A stretch of 18,161 nucleotides of DNA from Candidatus Cloacimonadota bacterium (lineage in GTDB: Bacteria; Cloacimonadota; Cloacimonadia; JGIOTU-2), in NCBI GenBank assembly GCA_014382495.1, contig JACNJR010000031.1, forward strand, positions 1 through 18,161, written 5' to 3'. The notes beneath the pieces were generated by a model that worked only from the letters and a program-made list of their open reading frames with translations, searched no databases and was not told where the DNA came from. Of the stretch, positions 7,960-17,776 are shown piece by piece (position 1 is the first letter of the stretch; every line of letters starts with the position of its first letter). Both the position numbers and the translations under genes were made by a program.

Positions 7960-8217
7960 TTAATCTTCTTTTACAAGATAAACTATATCGTGCTCACGGA
8001 CATGCTCTTTAACTTTCACTCCGATGGAATCACCGATTTTTGCACTTTCAATCGAATCCTCTTCAATATGAATTGATTTCACCTTTTGTGTAAAATCTGT
8101 TGTATGCCCTTTGATATGGATTGTATCGCCGACATTAAGTTCACCCTTTGTGATGTCAATTCCAGCAACTGAAATGTGACCCCAAAAATGGATAATTTTT
8201 CCTATCTCTTTCTCCAT
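7960..8217 (-). CDS. Small stand-alone beta-barrel protein resembling translation-factor domain 2 (EF-Tu/IF2/SelB domain-2-like)
   Basis: 85 aa. GKIIHFWGHISVAGIDITKGELNVGDTIHIKG ... IGDSIGVKVKEHVREHDIV follows the G-x-V-x-x-G-x-I-x-x-G-D pattern of EF-Tu domain 2 barrels. GGAGA Shine-Dalgarno before the ATG at 8217. Confidence 0.4.
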   Translation of the reverse strand: MEKEIGKIIHFWGHISVAGIDITKGELNVGDTIHIKGHTTDFTQKVKSIHIEEDSIESAKIGDSIGVKVKEHVREHDIVYLVKED

Positions 8218-8266: not shown

Positions 8267-9061
8267 TTATTTGGTTTTGGTCTTTTCTTTAATAACTGAT
8301 TTGATTAATTCGGTTGGAATTTTGCCTTTCTTCATAAATGATTTTACAAGATCAATTGGGATTGGGAAAACAATAGTTGAATTCTTTTCTGAAGCAATTT
8401 CAGTAAGAGTTTGCAAGAATCTGAGTTGAATTGAAGTTGTATTTTTGCTCAGCACTTCAGCGGCTTTTGCAAGTTTTGTGGATGCTTGGAATTCTCCCTC
8501 TGCATGAATAATTTTTGCTCTTCTCTCTCGTTCTGCTTCTGCCTGTTTTGCCATTGCTCGTTGCATTGTTGCCGGAAGTTCAACATCTTTTACTTCAACA
8601 ATACTCACCTTGATACCCCACGGATCGGTTCGCTCATCAATAACCTCTTGCAATTCCTGACTAATCTTCTCTCTATGCGAAAGAAGGTCATCAAGTTCGG
8701 ATTTTCCGAGAATATTTCGCAAAGTCGTCTGGGCAATTTGTGAAGTTGCTTGATAGTAATTTTCAACTTTTACAACTGCATCTTCCGGATTAAGAATACG
8801 AAAATAGACCACTGCATTGACTTTTACAGGCACATTATCACTTGTAATAATATCCTGAGGTGGCACATCCATCGTGACAGTTCGCAATTCAACTTTTACC
8901 ATTTTATCAATAAACGGAATGAGGAGAAATAATCCAGGACCTTTTGCGCGCAATAATCTTCCAAGACGAAATATCACGCCTCTTTCATATTCTCGCACAA
9001 TTCTGATTGCTTTGGAAAGAAATATTAAAGCCAAAATTATGACAATAATTGTTACATTCAT
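8267..9061 (-). CDS. SPFH/band-7 (stomatin/prohibitin-like) membrane protein
   Basis: 264 aa. N-terminal transmembrane helix ([14 protein letters not shown]), then the band-7 core [16 protein letters not shown] ... [24 protein letters not shown], and a C-terminal Ala/Glu/Arg coiled coil ([22 protein letters not shown]). GGAGGT Shine-Dalgarno before the ATG at 9061. Confidence 0.9.
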
Positions 9062-9147: not shown

Positions 9148-10158
9148 TTATCCAATTTTCTTTTTGGTATATTTTATCAATTTTTCAATTAAATCTTTTG
9201 ACCTGATTCCTTCTGCTTCTGCTGCGAAATTGAGTAAAATTCTATGTTGCAAAATCGGATTTGCGACAAACTCAACATCTTCAATTGTCGGAGTATATCT
9301 GCCATAAAGTGCGGCTCGAGTTTTTGATGCCAGAATAAGATATTGTGAAGCTCGCGGTCCAGAACCCCAATTTACCCATTTTTTCACAAAATCTGGCGCG
9401 TTTTTTTCATTTGGTCTGGAAATCCGCGCAAGATTCACAGCAAAATTAATGATATGTTCCGAGACAGGAATTTTGAATATGAATTTCTGAAGTTTAGTGA
9501 TTTCATCTCCAGCAATCACATTATTTATTTCAGGAAATTCCTGACTTGTGGTGAATTCTGCAATCTGCTTCTCCTCTTCAAAACTTGGATAATCAATATC
9601 GATATGAAAGATAAATCTATCTAATTGTGCTTCTGGAAGTGGATATGTGCCTTCCTGCTCAATCGGATTTTGAGTTGCAAGCACGAAGAATGGCGGCTCA
9701 AGTTTGAAGGTATTATTTCCAGCCGTAACTTCCCTTTCTTGCATTGCCTGAAGGAGCGCTGATTGAGTTTTGGGCGGAGTTCTATTTATTTCATCTGCTA
9801 AAATTATATTCGCAAAAATCGGTCCTTTCACAAATTCAAAAACTCGCTTTCCCGTTGTTTTATCTTCTGCCAAAATATCTGTGCCAGTGATATCTGAAGG
9901 CATCAAATCTGGTGTGAACTGGATTCTGCTAAATTTCAAATTGAGAACTTTTGAGATTGTGCTGATAAGTAAAGTTTTTGCCAATCCGGGAACTCCAACG
10001 AGAAGGCAATGTCCGTTTGCGAATAGAGAGATTAAAAAATATTCAATTACTTTATCTTGTCCGATAATTACTCTTCCAATTTCGTTCACAATTTTTTCTC
10101 GAATTATGCTGAGATTTTTGACCGTTTTTGCATCGTTCTTATCAATAATTTCTTTCAT
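9148..10158 (-). CDS. MoxR-family AAA+ ATPase
   Basis: 336 aa. Walker A GVPGLAKT, Walker B ILADEINR, and MoxR-typical VLATQNP and PLPEAQLDRF segments. Length and architecture match the MoxR/RavA-like AAA subfamily. Confidence 0.9.
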   Translation of the reverse strand: MKEIIDKNDAKTVKNLSIIREKIVNEIGRVIIGQDKVIEYFLISLFANGHCLLVGVPGLAKTLLISTISKVLNLKFSRIQFTPDLMPSDITGTDILAEDKTTGKRVFEFVKGPIFANIILADEINRTPPKTQSALLQAMQEREVTAGNNTFKLEPPFFVLATQNPIEQEGTYPLPEAQLDRFIFHIDIDYPSFEEEKQIAEFTTSQEFPEINNVIAGDEITKLQKFIFKIPVSEHIINFAVNLARISRPNEKNAPDFVKKWVNWGSGPRASQYLILASKTRAALYGRYTPTIEDVEFVANPILQHRILLNFAAEAEGIRSKDLIEKLIKYTKKKIG

Positions 10159-10196
10159 ATAAATTCCTTTTGCAATTTAATTTAACATTCTGAAAA

Positions 10197-11210
10197 TCAA
10201 TTTTTATATTTTTCACTTTCAGATATATTTACATTTCTGAAAGTATCTACTACTTTTACGCCGATATAACTAAAACTGAACAGACCGATTGCGGTTATCA
10301 TAATTCCTGTCAATAAATGCGCAAAACCGACGACGGCGCTGACAAGTTCTCGATTCAAACCGAGTCCAACTGAAAAAATAATCAGCATAATAAGTTCATT
10401 GCTGCCGATCTGCGCTGGCGGACAGGGAATGATGTAAGAGAGGTAAATCAAAGTATATCCAAACAAGATTATTGGAAATGTCAAATTTTCTCCGAACGCC
10501 TTGAATATGAGAAGAAAATATAATGCATCGATTAGAACAGCGCCAAAAGTCAGCAAAATTACTACTGGCAAAATTCTTGAATGATGCTTGAACAATCCGA
10601 TTCCCTCGACAAAATTTTCGATAATTTCAAAAAATTTTATCTCATATTTTTCTGGAATGAAAAAGAGAATTTTATGAAATAATTTCACTACAAATTTTTT
10701 ATTTATGGCAGTCAAAACAAGGATTCCTAATCCGAAAAGGACAACAGCAAGAAGGAGTATGATGAGAATTAGAAGCGGTTTAGCGATATTAGGTTGGAGA
10801 ATTGGAATCAAAATTATCACGACAAAAATCGAAAGTGAATCGAAGACCTTATCGATAAAAACTGACGGAAGCGTTTTCGATATTGCTTTTCCATTAGTTC
10901 GTTTAATAAAATAACTTTTGGCAAATTCCCCTGCGCGAATCGGAATGATATAATTCATAAAAAATCCCGCCATCCAAATTAAATACGCTTTTTTTATCGA
11001 TAAATTGCAAACAGGTTTCAGAATTATTCGCCATCGAATCGAACGGATAAAGTATGAAAATAGATATAAAACAGATGCAATTAGAACATAAACGAAATTT
11101 AATTTTCTGAAATAATCTGCTACCTCTTTTACATTTATGAATTTTATCCAAACGAGCAGAAGGATAATTCCCAATAAAATTCCGATGATTATTTTCTTTT
11201 TATCTGACAT
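10197..11210 (-). CDS. Integral membrane protein of the lysylphosphatidylglycerol-synthase transmembrane/flippase-like domain family (UPF0104, MprF N-terminal-like)
   Basis: 337 aa, about 8 hydrophobic helices. The N-terminal helix followed by FRSIRWRIIL and the overall pattern resemble the LPG-synthase TM domain. No catalytic (aminoacyl-transferase or glycosyltransferase) domain is attached. Confidence 0.65.
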   Translation of the reverse strand: MSDKKKIIIGILLGIILLLVWIKFINVKEVADYFRKLNFVYVLIASVLYLFSYFIRSIRWRIILKPVCNLSIKKAYLIWMAGFFMNYIIPIRAGEFAKSYFIKRTNGKAISKTLPSVFIDKVFDSLSIFVVIILIPILQPNIAKPLLILIILLLAVVLFGLGILVLTAINKKFVVKLFHKILFFIPEKYEIKFFEIIENFVEGIGLFKHHSRILPVVILLTFGAVLIDALYFLLIFKAFGENLTFPIILFGYTLIYLSYIIPCPPAQIGSNELIMLIIFSVGLGLNRELVSAVVGFAHLLTGIMITAIGLFSFSYIGVKVVDTFRNVNISESEKYKN

Positions 11211-11216
11211 TTTTGT

Positions 11217-12059
11217 TTATGTTTTAGTAAAAATCATATATTTATGATGTGCACAGAAGAATTTGATAAAATTAGGAGCAATTTTTTCAAACCAGTAATA
11301 TTTCATCATTCTGTTGGAAAAATCGGAATCTTTATTTGTATAATAATCTAAAATGCATAATTTTTCTTCATTTTTCTCTCTTTTGAGTTTTAACAGAAAA
11401 TCGAGGTGAAAAATTTTAAGAAACTCTCGCTTGTTCATTCCAATATCTGGCCATGGTGGACAGTCAATATAATTTCTCTCTACAAGTTTCCAATTCAAGT
11501 TTTTCATCTCTTTTATTATATTTTTTGGAACAATATTATCCTCTTTCAATTCTTTTTTCAATTCATTTCCAGAAATATATTTTTGGGAAATGTAGCCAAA
11601 TCCAAAACGATTGGGCACACAAATCCAAATCACCTTTTTCGTCACGCGTGTTAACTCTTTCAAAAATATTTCTAAACTATTCACGAACCAAAGAGCTGAA
11701 AAATTCCAACTTATATCAAAGCAATTATCTTCAAAGTTTAATTTTTGAAAATTTTCTTGAAAATAAAAATTAGTTTTTAATCCACAATTTTTCCATACAG
11801 AACGCACCATTTCTAATCGCTGTTTGTCATTATCAATCAGAGTAGCGGAAATGCCAGATTTTGCAACTGCTATAGAATTTATTCCGGTGATTCCCGTAAA
11901 ACCGAAGATTGGAACTTCTAATAGAGTTTCACACTTGTATTTTTTGATAATTTCTCGCAATTTGTTGTTCAAAATGATTCTTTCGTAACTTGAACCAAGT
12001 CCTTCATTTGGTTCTTCGGAGAAATAATTTTGCCAATTTTTCAAAATTGGAATTGCCAT
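11217..12059 (-). CDS. Putative class I SAM-dependent methyltransferase-like protein
   Basis: 280 aa. Possible motif I (LLEVPIFGFTGITGINSIAVAKSG), an acidic end of strand beta2 (ATLIDND), and motif IV-like FDISWNFSALWF. Weak call from pattern only. Starts 2 nt after the upstream gene's stop. Confidence 0.4.
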   Translation of the reverse strand: MAIPILKNWQNYFSEEPNEGLGSSYERIILNNKLREIIKKYKCETLLEVPIFGFTGITGINSIAVAKSGISATLIDNDKQRLEMVRSVWKNCGLKTNFYFQENFQKLNFEDNCFDISWNFSALWFVNSLEIFLKELTRVTKKVIWICVPNRFGFGYISQKYISGNELKKELKEDNIVPKNIIKEMKNLNWKLVERNYIDCPPWPDIGMNKREFLKIFHLDFLLKLKREKNEEKLCILDYYTNKDSDFSNRMMKYYWFEKIAPNFIKFFCAHHKYMIFTKT

Positions 12060-12061
12060 AA

Positions 12062-13042
12062 TTATCTGTCTGTTTTTTTATACCATTCTAAAACATACTT
12101 GAAATTCGGAATTGTGTTGTGCGATGTGATTTTTAAATCTTTTTCTGCTTGTGAAACATCATAATACCAACTTCTGGAAATCAGTTGTATGCGTGCAAAC
12201 CATAATTCATTCTTGATAATTTTTGAAAAAATAAATTCCAATACTCTAAACAGAAATGTCGGAATTTTTTTCCATTTTGGATAATTCTCACTTTTCAATT
12301 CAATATTAATGAAATTTGTTAATTTTTCTAATGAGACAGGAATTTTATCCGAAATATTGTAAGCATTTCCAGATTTGAGATTTTCATTTGCTGCATTTAT
12401 AAACGCAGAAGTCAGTGTTTCAACATCAATCATATTTATTTTAATATCTTGAGACGGACGTATCATCAGACCGTTATCAACCAAATTTATCAATTTGTAT
12501 GGAAATCCATAATCGCCTTTTCCATAAGTAATTGACGGACGAATGATGATAAGATTTAGCCCATTTTTGACTAATTTTTGAAGTTCGTTCTCTGCTTCGA
12601 TTTTAGTAAAATGATAGTAATTATCAGGTTTTCGGTTTGTGTTTTCATTTGGTGGAAGTTCATTTGGAATTGCGCCAAAAACCCCGACGGAACTGCAGAA
12701 AATCATTTTGCAATTATGTTTCAAACATTGTTCAGCAATATATTTTGTGGCATTTACATTTGTATCGTAATAATCTTTTTTAGAAAAATTTCTTCCTCCG
12801 CGAAGTGCTGCAATATGAAAAACAATATCAAATCTGATCTCACTAAAAATCTTTTCTATAAAATTTTGTGAATTCAGCTCGCCAAATTTACAAATTACTC
12901 CTTTGCTTTCAAATTTCTCATACCTTTCGACTTTCGTTTTCTCTCTAATTATCGCAACAATCCTATCATTTTTCTCTTCCAATAATTTTCTGCAAATGTG
13001 TCCGCCAATAAAACCTGTAATACCTGTGATTAAAATATTCAT
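12062..13042 (-). CDS. NAD-dependent epimerase/dehydratase (extended SDR family)
   Basis: 326 aa. N-terminal Rossmann motif ILITGITGFIGGHICRKL and the catalytic YxxxK (YHFTK). The length is typical of the UDP-sugar epimerase/dehydratase/reductase family. Confidence 0.85.
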   Translation of the reverse strand: MNILITGITGFIGGHICRKLLEEKNDRIVAIIREKTKVERYEKFESKGVICKFGELNSQNFIEKIFSEIRFDIVFHIAALRGGRNFSKKDYYDTNVNATKYIAEQCLKHNCKMIFCSSVGVFGAIPNELPPNENTNRKPDNYYHFTKIEAENELQKLVKNGLNLIIIRPSITYGKGDYGFPYKLINLVDNGLMIRPSQDIKINMIDVETLTSAFINAANENLKSGNAYNISDKIPVSLEKLTNFINIELKSENYPKWKKIPTFLFRVLEFIFSKIIKNELWFARIQLISRSWYYDVSQAEKDLKITSHNTIPNFKYVLEWYKKTDR

Positions 13043-13068: not shown

Positions 13069-13860
13069 TTACGAAAAAAAGTTTTTCACTCTTTCTAAAA
13101 ATGAGGTTTTATATTTTTTTTCTTGATAAATCTGTCTGAAGATATTTTCAAATGGCTCGTTATTAATAACCTTTTTGGGATTTTCATACATTAACAATTC
13201 AGCCAAATTTTCAGAATATTTTTCACTCAAATATTGATATGCAGCATCCATCAAAATGGGGCGTTTAGCCAGATTGTGAACATCCGAGGCGACAAAATGT
13301 ATGCATCCCACTTCCAACATTTTATGCGTCAGTACTTGAATTTTTTCACCATAATCTCCCAACAAACAACCGCAATTTGTCTGAATAAGAATGCCGCGAT
13401 TTGCAATATCAAGCAGAAAATCAAAATTATTTATAAATTGAAAATATCGCTCTGCATGCGCTAAAATTGGGATAAAATCTTCAAATTGAAATTCGAAAAG
13501 TGTCTCAAAGAAATTATTTGGAAATCTCTGCAAATCGGATTCTACCAAAATATATGAACTGCCTGCTAATGATAATTTTTCTCTTTTTACTTTTTCAATA
13601 AGATTTGGTTCAAAATATATTTCTGCACCTTTATGGATTTTTATTTGCAATTTGTTTTTGACGATTTTTGCGGATAATTCATCAAATTTTTCATCAATGG
13701 TTTTTCGATTATTGTCATAAGAACCGGAAATTATATGCGGAGTTACAATCACTTCTTTTACGCCTTGATTTATTAATTCATTAAGAATTTCAAAACTTTG
13801 CTCAAAATTTTCAGCACCATCATCTAATCCCGGCAAAATGTGCGAATGAATATCAATCAT
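13069..13860 (-). CDS. CpsB/CapC-type PHP-domain phosphoesterase (Mn-dependent protein-tyrosine phosphatase family, YwqE-like)
   Basis: 263 aa. The diagnostic N-terminus MIDIHSHILPGLDDGA and additional His clusters (VTPHII, ILAHAERY, ASDVHN) are typical of the PHP fold. ATG 13860-13858 lies 2 nt after the GGGPS stop. Confidence 0.85.
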   Translation of the reverse strand: MIDIHSHILPGLDDGAENFEQSFEILNELINQGVKEVIVTPHIISGSYDNNRKTIDEKFDELSAKIVKNKLQIKIHKGAEIYFEPNLIEKVKREKLSLAGSSYILVESDLQRFPNNFFETLFEFQFEDFIPILAHAERYFQFINNFDFLLDIANRGILIQTNCGCLLGDYGEKIQVLTHKMLEVGCIHFVASDVHNLAKRPILMDAAYQYLSEKYSENLAELLMYENPKKVINNEPFENIFRQIYQEKKYKTSFLERVKNFFS

Positions 13861-13862
13861 TT

Positions 13863-14618
13863 TTATCCTTTATGAATTGCGTCTGCAAAATTTTGGATTA
13901 GATTTTTATCGGGATTTTTTTCAAACGCGTGCCCTATCACGACAAAATCTGCTCCAGCATTTACCTTTTTTCTGGCATCATCTGGAGTTTTTATACCGCC
14001 GCCAACAATCAGCGGAATGTCCATATTTTTTTTCACAGCATCAATCATATTAACTGGGATAGACATTTTTGCTCCACTTCCTGCATCCATAAAAACAATT
14101 TTCATTCCAAGATATTGAGCGGCAAGAATGTGTGCAATTGCAATGTCATTTTTATCTCTTGGAATTGGAGTGCTGTTGCTCATATATTGAACGGAAGTTA
14201 GCGAACCAGATTCGATGATAAGATAGCCCGTTGGGATTGTTTCAACTTGCAGTTTTTTTATTAACGGAGCTGCTCTAACTTGCTCTCCAATAAGCAATTG
14301 CGGATTTCTGCTGCTTAATAAACTCATAAATAAAATTGCATCGGCGTGCGGAGAGCCCAAACTAAATATTCCCGGAAAGATGATTATAGGAATTTTTATC
14401 TGTTTTTTGATAGCAATTACAGTGGAATCGAAATCGTTTTTCAGCATAATACTTCCGCCAACGAAAATCGCATCAGCACCCGATTTTTCACAATCTTTGG
14501 CAAGCTCGGCAGATTGTTGTAAATCCTGTTTATCGGAATCTATCAAGCAGAAAAACCCAGCTTTTTTTCTGCGAATTACTTCCAACAAATAATTGTAAAT
14601 TTTATTATTTTTTACCAC
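13863..14618 (-). CDS. (Geranyl)geranylglyceryl-phosphate synthase, PcrB/GGGPS family TIM-barrel prenyltransferase
   Basis: 251 aa and collinear with B. subtilis PcrB and archaeal GGGPS: GADAIFVGGS, IIIFPG, KIVFMDAGSGA, IPLIVGGGIKT, ADFVVIGHAFE. Start is GTG (14618-14616), preceded by GTAGGAGAA. Confidence 0.8.
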   Translation of the reverse strand: MVKNNKIYNYLLEVIRRKKAGFFCLIDSDKQDLQQSAELAKDCEKSGADAIFVGGSIMLKNDFDSTVIAIKKQIKIPIIIFPGIFSLGSPHADAILFMSLLSSRNPQLLIGEQVRAAPLIKKLQVETIPTGYLIIESGSLTSVQYMSNSTPIPRDKNDIAIAHILAAQYLGMKIVFMDAGSGAKMSIPVNMIDAVKKNMDIPLIVGGGIKTPDDARKKVNAGADFVVIGHAFEKNPDKNLIQNFADAIHKG

Positions 14619-14639
14619 AAATTCTCCTACTTTTTTACA

Positions 14640-15482
14640 TCAAAAATATTGTGAAAACCAAAGCACAAGCAAGATTACAAACATATTGACTTTCATCATT
14701 TTTGAAGAAAAAGACGCTTTTTTTTTACTGAATTTCAGAAATAAATTTGATAGATTTATCGGAATAAAAAAGCCGACGAGCAGAATCAAAATTGCAAAAA
14801 CCGAAATTTCATAAAACCTTTCGTATCCAAAAATTGTCAAGATTGTAAGAAAAATCCAGAATAAAAATAGTAAAACGAAGGTAACATTTTTCCCGAAAAT
14901 TATCGGAATTGTTTTCGCATTATTTTTTTTATCGCCTTTAATATCTTCCAAATCCTTCACAATTTCACGAATAATCGTAAAAACAAATGCACAAAAAAAT
15001 ATGAAATATGAATTCGCGATATTTTCATTTGCCAATCCGCCGTAAAGGAATGCGGAAGCCGTAAAAAATGATACTAAAATATTGTCGAGAAATGTCAGTT
15101 TTTTCGCTTTATATGCGTAAATCCAAAGAAGAATTGAATTGCAAGAAGCGAGTAAAATCATCCAAAGATTTTTGAAGATGAAACTAATAATTATTCCGAA
15201 AATAAACATCAAAATTGCAAAATTTTTTGCAGATATTGGAGAAATTTTTCCGGAAGGTATTGCTCTTTTTGGTTTATTTATTTTGTCGATTTCAATATCA
15301 AAAAAATCGTTGATTACATATCCGGCAGCTGCTATAAATGATGCAGAAAGTGCGGCTAAAACAGGGAAAATCAAATTTGAAAAATCAAAATTTGTCTTCC
15401 AATAAGCTCCGAAAAGAACAGATATTGCGACAAAAAAAATATTAAAAGGTCTGGTAATTTTGAAGTACGAAATCAAACTCAC
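14640..15482 (-). CDS. UbiA-superfamily prenyltransferase, most consistent with digeranylgeranylglyceryl-phosphate synthase (DGGGPS-like)
   Basis: 280 aa, about 8-9 TM helices. First Asp-rich motif NDFFDIEIDKINKPKRAIPSG (NDxxDxxxD) and a second acidic patch REIVKDLEDIKGD. The short length and N-terminal FKITRPFN match DGGGPS rather than the longer quinone enzymes UbiA and MenA. GTG start (15482-15480) overlaps the upstream TAG by 1 nt. The DGGGPS assignment rests partly on adjacency to GGGPS. Confidence 0.7.
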   Translation of the reverse strand: MSLISYFKITRPFNIFFVAISVLFGAYWKTNFDFSNLIFPVLAALSASFIAAAGYVINDFFDIEIDKINKPKRAIPSGKISPISAKNFAILMFIFGIIISFIFKNLWMILLASCNSILLWIYAYKAKKLTFLDNILVSFFTASAFLYGGLANENIANSYFIFFCAFVFTIIREIVKDLEDIKGDKKNNAKTIPIIFGKNVTFVLLFLFWIFLTILTIFGYERFYEISVFAILILLVGFFIPINLSNLFLKFSKKKASFSSKMMKVNMFVILLVLWFSQYF

Positions 15483-16369
15483 TACGGCACTCTATCCTGA
15501 ATCGTATCCAGAAAATTTAGTAACATGCTATTATTCGGAATATATTTTATGATATTTCTCGCATCGTGAATGAGTTTTAGTGCTTGCTTTTTCGACTCTT
15601 CAATTCCGAGCAAAACGGGATATGTAACCCGATTATTTTTGCTATCTTCGCCAGTTTCCTTTTCCAATAAATCATCTGCACCAATTTCGTCAAGAATATC
15701 GTCAATTACTTGATATGCCAAGCCGACATTTAGTGCGAAATCGCTCAAAGCGCTGGTAGTTTGCTCATTTGCGTTTGCAACAACACATGCCATTTCTTCA
15801 GCGGCTCGGAGAAGTGCGCCTGTTTTTTTTAGATGAATATCTCGCAAAACATGCAATTTTACTCTTCTTTTCGTAGAAAGCAATTCCACAACTTGTCCGC
15901 CAATCATCCCGCGAGTTGACGCTGATTGAAGAAGAATCTCGAGACAATCCAGCGAATGTTTTCTTTTTTTCATTTTCAAAATAGTTTCAAATGACTTGGT
16001 TATCAACGCATCGCCAGCTAAAATTGCAATCGCATTTCCAAATTTTTTGTGACAACTTGGCTTTCCTCTTCTCACATTTGCATCGTCCATAAATGGCAAA
16101 TCGTCGTGAATCAACGATGCTGTATGAATCATCTCGATGGCGCAGGCAAGTGGCATTATTTTTTGAATTCGGCGCGTGTCTCGACGCTTGATGAGCATTT
16201 CATAAGTTGCAATTAGAAGTAATGGGCGAAGTCGTTTTCCGCCAGCAAAAATCGAATATCTCATCGCTTCGTGAATTTTTTGTGGATATTTGCTTTTTGG
16301 CGATAAGTATTTATTGAGCGCTTTTTCAATTAACTTTTTTCTGCTATCAAAATATCTTTCTAAAATCAA
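15482..16369 (-). CDS. Short-chain polyprenyl diphosphate synthase, probably geranylgeranyl diphosphate synthase (type II, FARM with 2-residue insertion)
   Basis: 295 aa. FARM IHTASLIHDDLPFMDD and SARM YQVIDDILD. Ala and Ser occupy the -5 and -4 positions before the FARM, where C15-limited FPP synthases such as E. coli IspA carry an aromatic residue. This chain-length rule predicts a C20 or longer product. Start is TTG (16369-16367), preceded by GGAGG; an in-frame TAA at 16387-16385 closes the frame upstream. Confidence 0.88.
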   Translation of the reverse strand: MILERYFDSRKKLIEKALNKYLSPKSKYPQKIHEAMRYSIFAGGKRLRPLLLIATYEMLIKRRDTRRIQKIMPLACAIEMIHTASLIHDDLPFMDDANVRRGKPSCHKKFGNAIAILAGDALITKSFETILKMKKRKHSLDCLEILLQSASTRGMIGGQVVELLSTKRRVKLHVLRDIHLKKTGALLRAAEEMACVVANANEQTTSALSDFALNVGLAYQVIDDILDEIGADDLLEKETGEDSKNNRVTYPVLLGIEESKKQALKLIHDARNIIKYIPNNSMLLNFLDTIQDRVP

Positions 16370-16543
16370 TTGTCCTCCAAATTTTTATGCTTATTTTTAA
16401 ATTTAAAGTAAAAAGAAAATTTTGAAAAATTCTGTCAATGTTTTCTAAAAAAAATGCAGACGAAAAGCAAAATAAATTATTGACAAGATTTTCTAAACCG
16501 AAATAAAGAAGGATAAACTTTTCTGCAGAATCGGAATTTTTCT
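16370..16543. promoter_or_regulatory. Divergent promoter region between the isoprenoid/ether-lipid operon (minus) and the MFS transporter gene (plus)
   Basis: TTGACA on the plus strand at 16479-16484 has an AATAAA -10-like element about 16-17 nt downstream. Its reverse complement TGTCAA at 16433-16438 is the -35-like element for the minus-strand operon. Each is followed by TTTTCTAAA (16441-16449 and 16489-16497). Confidence 0.3.
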
Positions 16544-17776
16544 ATGAAATTAAATCGTAGTATTGTCGGCTGGGTCAGTTATGACTTCGCAAATTCCTCC
16601 TTCACAACTGTAATAATTACGGCTGTCTACAGTGTTTACTTCAAAGATGTTGTGGTTGGAAATGGCGATCGTGGCGATTTATATTGGGCAATTGCAATCA
16701 GCATTTCGATGCTCGTCGTTGCACTTTCAGCACCAATGCTTGGAGCAATTTCAGATTATTCGCAAACAAAAAAAAGATTTCTTATTTTATTCTGCTACAC
16801 ATCTGTGATTTTTACAGCACTTCTCTTTTTTGTGCGACAGGGAACAATTTTTTGGGGAATGCTTCTTTTCATTATTGCAAATATCGGATTTGAAGGTGGG
16901 AATGTTTTCTACAACGCATTTTTGCCAGAAATTACGGAGAAAAAAAATATCGGCAAAGTTTCTGGCTTAGGTTGGGGAATCGGTTATTTGGGCGGTTTGT
17001 CCGCTTTGGGATTATCGCTACTTTTGGTCGGAAAAAATATCGTATTAATTTTTCCAATGATTGCAATTTTCTTCGGTCTATTTGCGATTCCAATGTTTAT
17101 TTTAGTTCCGGAAAAAAGAGATTTGGATAGAAGAAAAATCAACTATCTTAAAGCTGGATATCAGAGATTATTACAAACTTTTAAACACATAAATAAATTC
17201 AAAGAATTGGGCAAATTTTTGGTCTCATTTTTTATCTATAATGATGGAATAAAAACCGTAATTGTTTTCGCAGCAATTTACGGCAGAGAGCGATTTGGAA
17301 TGAATTTTAACCAACTGATAATCTATATTATTTTTGCAAATATCACTTCATTTTGGGGAGCTATTTCATTCGGACATATTGTTGATAAAATTGGTGCAAA
17401 AAAGACAATATCCATCACTCTGATTATTTGGATTGCAGTTGTGATTTGGGCGTTTTTCTGTCCAAATATTTTGCAATTTTATGGAGTAGGACTTCTCGCT
17501 GGCGTTGCAATCGGTTCTTGCCAAGCAGCAAGTAGAAGTATGGTTTCTCTGTTAAGTCCAAAAGATAAGCAGGCAGAATTTTTTGGATTTTATGCGATGA
17601 GCGGAAAAGCCGCAGCAATTCTCGGACCAATTGTTTATGCACTTCTTGTTCTTCTTTTTCAGAGTCACAGATTCGCAATTTTGAGTATTGCATTTTTCTT
17701 CATTTTTGGATTTGTGATTCTTCAAACGGTTGATGAAAAATCTGGAATCGATGCAACAAAATCTCACTTGGAATAA
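16544..17776 (+). CDS. MFS transporter, UMF1 (Atg22-like) family
   Basis: 410 aa with about 12 predicted TM helices. The N-terminal WVSYDFANSSF is the conserved start of UMF1-family MFS proteins. There is a central cytoplasmic loop (EKRDLDRRKINYLKAGYQRL). Confidence 0.8.
   Translation: MKLNRSIVGWVSYDFANSSFTTVIITAVYSVYFKDVVVGNGDRGDLYWAIAISISMLVVALSAPMLGAISDYSQTKKRFLILFCYTSVIFTALLFFVRQGTIFWGMLLFIIANIGFEGGNVFYNAFLPEITEKKNIGKVSGLGWGIGYLGGLSALGLSLLLVGKNIVLIFPMIAIFFGLFAIPMFILVPEKRDLDRRKINYLKAGYQRLLQTFKHINKFKELGKFLVSFFIYNDGIKTVIVFAAIYGRERFGMNFNQLIIYIIFANITSFWGAISFGHIVDKIGAKKTISITLIIWIAVVIWAFFCPNILQFYGVGLLAGVAIGSCQAASRSMVSLLSPKDKQAEFFGFYAMSGKAAAILGPIVYALLVLLFQSHRFAILSIAFFFIFGFVILQTVDEKSGIDATKSHLE

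Follow-up and report, generated by a model that had tools for sequence, protein, structure and literature searches.

The presence in bacteria of both enzymes that form the ether bonds of archaeal lipids bears on the 'lipid divide', and on whether mixed archaeal/bacterial membranes occur naturally. For the phylum Cloacimonadota this significance was set out by Villanueva et al. (ISME J 2021, PMC7852524), who described four Black Sea metagenome-assembled genomes (MAGs) of Ca. Cloacimonetes (NIOZ-UU1 to UU4) in which geranylgeranylglyceryl phosphate synthase (GGGPS) is co-localised with digeranylgeranylglyceryl phosphate synthase (DGGGPS) and a polyprenyl synthase. Transcripts of the cassette genes were found in the environment. 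In vitro, the Cloacimonetes GGGPS formed geranylgeranylglyceryl phosphate (GGGP) with both sn-glycerol-1-phosphate (G1P) and sn-glycerol-3-phosphate (G3P). In E. coli the Black Sea orthologues gave phosphatidylglycerol (PG)-archaeol, and the DGGGPS orthologue was required together with GGGPS for diether to be made. The published MAGs are without glycerol-1-phosphate dehydrogenase (G1PDH) and CarS, but do have geranylgeranyl reductases, and co-localisation of GGGPS and DGGGPS was reported to be restricted, among bacteria, to Cloacimonetes (PMC7852524). Johnson and Hug found the genes in 24–30% of Cloacimonadota genomes. The current study concerns a stretch of 18,161 bases that makes up a whole NCBI contig of a Cloacimonadota MAG (JACNJR010000031.1; hereafter the window), in which three adjacent minus-strand genes encode an isoprenyl (polyprenyl) diphosphate synthase (IDS), a UbiA-superfamily membrane prenyltransferase, and a GGGPS of the PcrB family.

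A prediction made from the DNA alone (the original prediction) had placed an archaeal-type ether-lipid cassette at nt 13863 – 16369, where the open reading frames (ORFs) were indeed found, and had suspected that such a cassette was already known from Cloacimonetes. This is the case. Work on this phylum had reported it, with a test in E. coli, in 2020/21, PGAP already names all three genes of the contig accordingly, and the cassette is not a new discovery. The window adds one more Cloacimonadota lineage. The comparative additions are modest: the ether-bond genes appear to be lost or gained as a unit, the adjacent prenyl synthase appears to decay where they are missing, and one clade has an odd GGGPS pocket. 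They provide testable handles on the cellular products and on glycerol stereochemistry.

The cluster resembles that of the NIOZ-UU MAGs in its phylum, in its three co-localised genes, and in the absence nearby of G1PDH and CarS. It differs from the NIOZ-UU3 scaffold in having a divergent major facilitator superfamily (MFS) gene upstream instead of PriA. The order of that scaffold, PriA-IDS-UbiA-PcrB, recurs in a related locus (L022, see below), a likeness of gene order that does not prove a link to the assayed protein. The available portions of the text and supplement of PMC7852524 make no mention of phosphatase, epimerase or methyltransferase neighbours, genes of the kind that follow the cassette here. 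With the archaeal pathway (4MM1 for GGGPS, 6M31 for DGGGPS), the window enzymes share the same folds and catalytic motifs, and a group II GGGPS with an aromatic anchor. Unlike that pathway, the host is bacterial, the predicted geranylgeranyl diphosphate (GGPP) synthase is of the bacterial/plant type II while the archaeal enzyme is type I, and the GGGPS pocket reads F-M-D in place of the archaeal Y-L-E.

All three Pfam families named in the original prediction were recovered far above their cut-offs, and the motifs it quoted (DDLPFMDD with Ala/Ser at -5/-4, NDxxDxxxD, GGGIK and AGSGA) are all present. The UbiA-superfamily protein matches PF01040 over residues 20–258 (131.1 bits; cut-off 34.2). 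Its top five NCBIfam models are all of archaeal DGGGPS type (106–191 bits), compared with 77 bits for ChlG, 72 for EboC, 50–55 for UbiA, 49 for CyoE and 23 for MenA. The best solved relative is the DGGGPS of M. jannaschii (MjDGGGPS, 6M31), which aligns over the full length (E 2.4e-40, 142 bits), and the next family in the PDB is chlorophyll synthase (E 1e-10, 45 bits). Residues critical in MjDGGGPS are N62, D66, D70, Y125/K130, D180, D183 and D187 (reviewed in PMC9385802), and all of them are conserved. Motif 1 of the window protein, N58-D59-F-F-D62-I-E-I-D66, supplies N58 (equivalent to N62) and D62/D66 (D66/D70); motif 2, YAYKAK, supplies Y122 and K127 (Y125/K130); and D177, D180 and D184 correspond to D180, D183 and D187. 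An identical protein in the NCBI database (MBC8313054.1, 100% identity) carries the PGAP name geranylgeranylglycerol-phosphate geranylgeranyltransferase. These comparisons support the proposed grouping of the protein with DGGGPS, and not with the quinone, heme or chlorophyll prenyltransferases, and it is predicted to be the enzyme of the second ether bond.

The GGGPS matches PF01884 (156.9 bits, cut-off 23.9) and exceeds the cut-offs of both NF003198 (299.1 bits, cut-off 247) and the GGGP equivalog TIGR01769 (217.8 bits, cut-off 161.55). The group I models TIGR04146, TIGR04147 and NF003197 give only 36–41 bits, the last of these, for heptaprenylglyceryl phosphate synthase, reaching 38.1 bits against a cut-off of 260, which places the protein outside the Bacillales heptaprenylglyceryl phosphate (HepGP) system. 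Among solved structures it is closest to the enzymes of F. johnsoniae (4JEJ, E 1.6e-55) and M. thermautotrophicus (4MM1, E 4.7e-54), with the Bacillus/Geobacillus PcrB structures at E ~1e-7 and A. fulgidus 2F6U at 1.2e-4. Phosphate-binding motifs are present at residues 179 (AGSGA) and 206 (GGGIK). The F. johnsoniae enzyme (group IIb), like that of the window, comes from a bacterium belonging to the FCB (Fibrobacteres-Chlorobi-Bacteroidetes) group, and its GGGP synthase activity has been demonstrated (PMC7852524, PMC9385802); it differs in having Arg at the anchor position and in being a dimer. Bacillales PcrB (group Ib; 1VIZ, 3VZX) shares the PF01884 TIM barrel and the glycerol phosphate acceptor, but takes a C35 donor, lacks a UbiA partner and makes only a monoether. 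The evidence supports a group II GGGP synthase, predicted to form the first ether bond, and the possibility raised at the outset, that this is a heptaprenyl PcrB of Firmicutes type, was not borne out.

The IDS matches PF00348 with 202 bits (cut-off 27) and exceeds the cut-off of the NCBIfam FPPsyn subfamily model NF045485 (305.6 bits, cut-off 275). Its relatives in the PDB are cyanobacterial, plant and bacterial synthases of GGPP and farnesyl diphosphate (FPP), at E ~1e-59. The first aspartate-rich motif (FARM), DDLPFMDD, lies at residues 89–96 and is preceded by T-A-S-L-I-H, which puts Ala at -5 and Ser at -4. A two-residue FARM insertion with Pro, together with small residues at -4/-5, is the signature of type II GGPP synthases (PMC9385802), and the IDS conforms to this rule. 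All 12 related loci with the ether pair (UbiA and GGGPS) retain the string (T/A)-A-S-L-(I/V)-H-DDLP. The product of the IDS is predicted to be GGPP (C20).

The three genes are likely to be a unit dedicated to the biosynthesis of an unsaturated, archaeal-type diether core. In the proposed scheme, the IDS would extend dimethylallyl diphosphate (DMAPP) or FPP with isopentenyl diphosphate (IPP) to GGPP. The soluble TIM-barrel GGGPS would then attach one geranylgeranyl group at the free primary hydroxyl of glycerol phosphate to make GGGP, and the nine-helix UbiA-type DGGGPS would place another on the C2 hydroxyl, which yields digeranylgeranylglyceryl phosphate (DGGGP). Because no CarS is present, head-group activation would need bacterial enzymes encoded elsewhere (CdsA, PgsA, Pgp). 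The family assignments, catalytic residues, gene packing and conservation within the phylum come from the current analysis, and the activity of orthologues from the literature, where diether formation on expression, proposed in the original prediction as a check, has been shown for the Black Sea proteins (see above). Chain length, co-transcription and stereochemistry are inferred, as are the activity of the window's own proteins and what becomes of DGGGP in the cell.

A number of observations weigh against this reading. The UbiA protein scores below the cut-offs of the DGGGPS equivalog models, namely its best model PRK12882 (191.5 bits, cut-off 296), PRK12884 (175.4 bits, cut-off 269) and PRK12883 (149.4 bits, cut-off 353), models that derive from archaeal sequences. 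With the CrtE GGPP synthase equivalog NF045685, the IDS scores 271 bits, below the cut-off of 460, and as the only subfamily cut-off it passes is that for FPP synthases, the C20 call rests on the -5/-4 rule. Of the remaining archaeal pathway, no G1PDH, CarS or geranylgeranyl reductase was found among the ORFs of the window (the original prediction had already noted that EgsA/AraM and CarS were missing from it), nor within 10 kb of the gene for the PHP phosphoesterase that follows GGGPS in three other assemblies of the same organism (L036–L038). The complete archaeal phospholipid pathway is thus found in neither. No later paper on lipids from Cloacimonadota cells was found, and the phylum was still uncultured in 2026. 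Three features of the GGGPS pocket belong here as well: F-M-D at the Y-x-E motif, His at a phosphate-loop position, and Gly at the proposed chain limiter.

The pocket was compared in an alignment of 156 sequences (150 full-library representatives, the loci of this study, and two group II structures). Y132 of the window, which is the Tyr in the GY motif, is invariant. The Tyr and Glu of the Y-x-E motif have been described as governing stereospecificity and catalysis (PMC9385802). This motif reads YLE in 89 of the 156 and F176-M-D178 in the window enzyme; Asp occupies the Glu position in 51 and Phe the Tyr position in 10, and the combination F-M-D is confined to three, these being the window, L022 and L023. 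The phosphate-loop position is usually Asn (75) or Thr (62), and His230 of the window is the only His. In helix alpha-3', the proposed chain limiter (V86 in the M. thermautotrophicus enzyme, I90 in that of F. johnsoniae) is V/I/L in 139 sequences and Gly in two, and is Gly88 in the window; the limiter has been called poorly defined in group II enzymes (PMC9385802). The 'aromatic anchor' is aromatic in most relatives and is Y145 here, as in hexameric enzymes, which suggests that the window GGGPS forms a hexamer. G88, F176, D178 and H230 are identical in the three other assemblies, and these unusual residues may bear on the choice between G1P and G3P.

A contig search with UbiA alone returned four Cloacimonadota loci, and look-ups by exact protein proved far more informative. 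The order IDS-UbiA-GGGPS-PHP is kept in 12 further Cloacimonadota loci with differing flanks, between which and the window UbiA identity is 38–58%. The closest relatives (L022–L024) have an ARMT1-like gene after PHP, replacing the block found in the window, which consists of an extended short-chain dehydrogenase/reductase (SDR), a methyltransferase (MT), a flippase-like LPG_synthase_TM protein and MoxR. In L022, where PriA lies upstream of IDS, identity to the window is 57% for UbiA, 67% for GGGPS and 74% for IDS. In most other lineages, a GFO/IDH/MocA oxidoreductase is found immediately upstream of IDS and on the same strand (L025:8061-9092; L026–L030), the best match for that of L025 being inositol 2-dehydrogenase-like (141 bits, below cut-off); in the window this place is taken by the divergent MFS gene. 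No GGGPS or IDS was found within 10 kb of the UbiA homologues sampled from other FCB bacteria and from archaea. A Ca. Cloacimonas sp. locus (L034/L035) has the order IDS-PHP-SDR-MT-like-LPG_TM-MoxR without UbiA or PcrB, the gap between IDS and PHP being only 3 nt. The IDS of L034 (L034:9098-9997) has degenerate motifs: its FARM is DDLPSVMN, with the third Asp lost, RRG is replaced by RRA, and the second aspartate-rich motif (SARM) reads E-D-I-E-A. Its score with the FPPsyn model (193 bits) is below the 275 cut-off, and the enzyme seems to be in decay or repurposed. The degeneration of IDS where UbiA and GGGPS are missing argues that IDS is functionally tied to the ether pair, and UbiA and GGGPS would appear to come and go together, as a single unit with a fixed place in the operon. 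The unit is old in the phylum, and is neither a recent archaeal import nor a contaminant.

That the cassette is archaeal DNA, introduced by mis-assembly, mis-binning or very recent horizontal transfer, might be suspected from the fact that its enzymes are typical of Archaea and that the best matches of UbiA outside the phylum include Methanocaldococcus and Methanobrevibacter. We consider this extremely improbable, and contamination or a chimeric assembly was rejected. The whole arrangement recurs at 98–100% protein identity in three further ENA assemblies of this organism (L036–L038, 62–66 kb), so that the same junctions are seen in four independent assemblies, and the cassette is real and neither a chimera nor an assembly artefact. 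Composition is uniform across the region, the three genes (GC 0.30–0.36) matching their flanks in a window of ~32% GC overall, and the genes sit in a bacterial operon, with an MFS gene on one side and MoxR, stomatin and MetG on the other. Across the phylum the unit diverges in step with its neighbours, and Villanueva et al. re-amplified their cassette scaffold from a water sample (PMC7852524). It is also very unlikely that the acceptor of the UbiA protein is something other than GGGP (a quinone, a chlorophyll-type or EboC-type acceptor, or another compound) and that its adjacency to GGGPS is coincidental. The protein does fall below every DGGGPS equivalog cut-off, functions within the UbiA superfamily vary widely, and other roles had long been presumed for the bacterial homologues (PMC7852524), but the gap between the best DGGGPS and the best non-DGGGPS match is ~115 bits among NCBIfam models and ~97 bits in the PDB. 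The protein keeps the equivalents of N62 and Y125, which lie on the acceptor side in MjDGGGPS, UbiA and GGGPS are gained or lost together, and an orthologue was needed beside GGGPS for diether formation in E. coli.

The two other alternatives accept a diether product and differ from the dedicated archaeal-type unit in its backbone or its fate. Without G1PDH, the GGGPS could use G3P and give isoprenoid diethers of bacterial stereochemistry, a variant of the preferred reading that we hold to be possible but the less probable course. In its favour, G1PDH was found neither in the window and the extended contigs nor in the published Cloacimonetes MAGs, the published GGGPS accepted G3P as well as G1P, and the residues described for stereospecificity and catalysis are altered (Tyr to F176, Glu to D178), together with H230 in the phosphate loop. 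Many group II relatives carry Asp in place of the Glu, however, so D178 does not represent an adaptation particular to the clade, Y132, the other conserved Tyr, is unchanged, and no rule ties the pocket residues to a preference for G1P or G3P. Furthermore, araM is not needed for E. coli to form G1P-type archaeal lipids (PMC7852524), and therefore some bacterial source of G1P exists. The diether might instead be the precursor of a specialised envelope lipid rather than a bulk phospholipid, and be processed by the products of the downstream genes, which we judge unlikely. The same low expectation attaches to the individual steps, in which PHP would dephosphorylate the product, SDR and MT modify it, and the flippase-like protein export it, much as HepGP is dephosphorylated and acetylated in Bacillus. 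PHP lies directly 3' of GGGPS in 12 of 12 related loci, its start in nearly all of them overlapping the GGGPS stop or no more than 2 nt away. The SDR-MT-LPG_synthase_TM-MoxR genes come next in most lineages (L002, L015 and L025–L029, with a truncated MT in L030), CarS is not present, and dephosphorylation of the PcrB product in Bacillus provides a precedent (PMC9179154). The best fold matches of the MT also include prenyl-diphosphate C-methyltransferases, at a TM-score of only ~0.5. On the other hand, the whole PHP-SDR-MT-LPG_TM-MoxR series persists in Ca. Cloacimonas without UbiA and GGGPS, SDR and MT occur as an isolated pair in other genomes, once among glycosyltransferase genes, PHP is a typical homologue of the CpsB/YwqE tyrosine phosphatases, and synteny within a single phylum can reflect inheritance rather than function. 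A combination of the two ideas, with a detachable DGGGPS-GGGPS module in a conserved envelope operon, a diether that is dephosphorylated, modified and flipped to become a specialised surface lipid in place of the usual archaetidyl phospholipids, and a backbone that is perhaps non-archaeal (F176/D178/H230/G88), is decidedly unlikely.

The proposed diether unit stands at the head of a single minus-strand gene run (Table 1) with gaps between genes of -1 to 86 nt. The translational coupling claimed in the original prediction holds for one junction but not the other: the IDS stop and UbiA start overlap by 1 nt (TAGTG), while 21 nt separate the UbiA stop from the start of GGGPS, which has its own Shine-Dalgarno sequence. 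IDS starts with TTG, with GGAGGA upstream, UbiA with GTG, and GGGPS also with GTG, with AGGAG 6 nt upstream. The PHP start follows 2 nt past the GGGPS stop, and gaps within the SDR to MoxR block are 2–38 nt. IDS, UbiA, GGGPS and the downstream genes at 9148..13042 are probably carried on one transcript. A scan for the sigma-70 consensus found no promoter upstream of IDS, although TTGACA occurs in the 174-nt gap, and its total of 45 promoter-like sites was only slightly in excess of the 36.5 expected from shuffles; no terminator-like site was seen inside the minus-strand block. As the scan gave neither, the extent of the operon and the position of its promoter are read only from how the genes are laid out and spaced. 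No matches came from scanning the window for Rfam families and tRNAs.

Table 1. Coordinates (nt in the window) of the minus-strand gene run and its upstream region.
Feature	Position	Strand	Remarks
Divergent MFS/ATG22-like transporter	16544-17776		upstream of IDS, opposite direction
Intergenic, presumed operon promoter region	16370..16543	-	174-nt gap between divergent MFS (ATG22-like) gene and IDS
IDS, short-chain (E)-polyprenyl diphosphate synthase, predicted GGPP (C20) type II	15482..16369	-	295 aa, PF00348
UbiA-superfamily membrane prenyltransferase, DGGGP synthase-like	14640..15482	-	280 aa, PF01040
Group II GGGPS, PcrB family TIM barrel	13863..14618	-	251 aa, PF01884
CpsB/YwqE-type PHP metal-dependent phosphoesterase	13069..13860	-	PF19567
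Extended SDR	13042..12062	-	domain search
Class I S-adenosylmethionine (SAM) methyltransferase (MT)	12059..11217	-	domain search
LPG_synthase_TM/flippase-like membrane protein	11210..10197	-	domain search
MoxR AAA+ ATPase	10158..9148	-	domain search
Stomatin/Band 7	9061..8267	-	domain search
85-aa ORF	8217..7960	-	end of minus-strand run

Beyond this run the window carries MetG, SpoIID/LytB, MiaB and others. The bacterial neighbours listed in the original prediction (metG, miaB, SpoIID, MoxR and stomatin) were thereby confirmed by domain search. Between the window and the three other assemblies there are 32 synonymous and 8 non-synonymous changes across IDS, UbiA, GGGPS and PHP; the differences are few and the three comparisons mutually non-independent, so the synonymous excess is merely a qualitative sign of purifying selection. 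The GGGPS protein deposited at NCBI (MBC8313053.1) has 245 aa and is six residues shorter than the GTG-initiated ORF. Its start has probably been placed too far downstream, since AGGAG lies 6 nt before the GTG and a length of 251 aa matches the orthologues of the sister assemblies.

The genes downstream of GGGPS were also considered as possible contributors to the pathway. PHP matches PF19567 with 204 bits and YwqE (3QY6) with E 1.9e-39, and retains the metal motifs HxH, AHAER and ASDVH. The idea that it is a dedicated (D)GGGP phosphatase was downgraded, as it keeps its position in Ca. Cloacimonas, where UbiA and GGGPS are missing. The SDR bears a weak resemblance to nucleotide-sugar enzymes. 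It was considered as an 'epimerase' that might provide the missing G1P, by inversion at C2 of glycerol phosphate or GGGP, and was set aside on account of this weak sugar-enzyme resemblance and of the SDR-MT pair standing alone elsewhere. The GFO/IDH/MocA oxidoreductase of other lineages is likewise unsupported as a G1P source, the gene being absent from the window. For the MT, the PDB contains no informative sequence relative, and an AlphaFold model (pLDDT 85) searched with Foldseek showed only a generic class I SAM-MT fold (TM-score ~0.5), with prenyl-diphosphate C-methyltransferases (FPP C6-MT, 9TB4; geranyl diphosphate (GPP) C6-MT BezA, 7FBO), RebM and SpnF as top matches. In an operon headed by a prenyl synthase, a link to prenyl-diphosphate methylation is a weak lead from the modelled fold. 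As the PHP/SDR/MT/flippase-like/MoxR block persists without the ether pair, and SDR-MT occurs alone, these genes are independent of the ether genes; that the block takes part in the processing of ether lipids is conceivable but unsupported.

The isolated SDR-MT pairs, with genes abutting or overlapping, were seen in unrelated contexts in three genomes of Mb size (L031–L033). In L033 the neighbours are GT2 glycosyltransferases, a PMT_2/TMEM260-like protein, a radical SAM/SPASM protein, an MBOAT protein and a sulfotransferase, a context that hints at a role for the pair in envelope glycoconjugates.

Two further ORFs of the window deserve mention. On the minus strand, nt 1746-2846 encode an FAD-dependent oxidoreductase that scores 281 with the L-2-hydroxyglutarate oxidase model (cut-off 299); its second-best model is a type 2 glycerol-3-phosphate oxidase (200 bits), and it could be relevant to glycerol-phosphate metabolism. 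For the plus-strand ORF at nt 13-744, which borders the contig edge, the match is only to a C-terminal stretch of RqcH/FbpA-type (NFACT) proteins (profile positions 322–559 of 567). The gene is probably truncated there.

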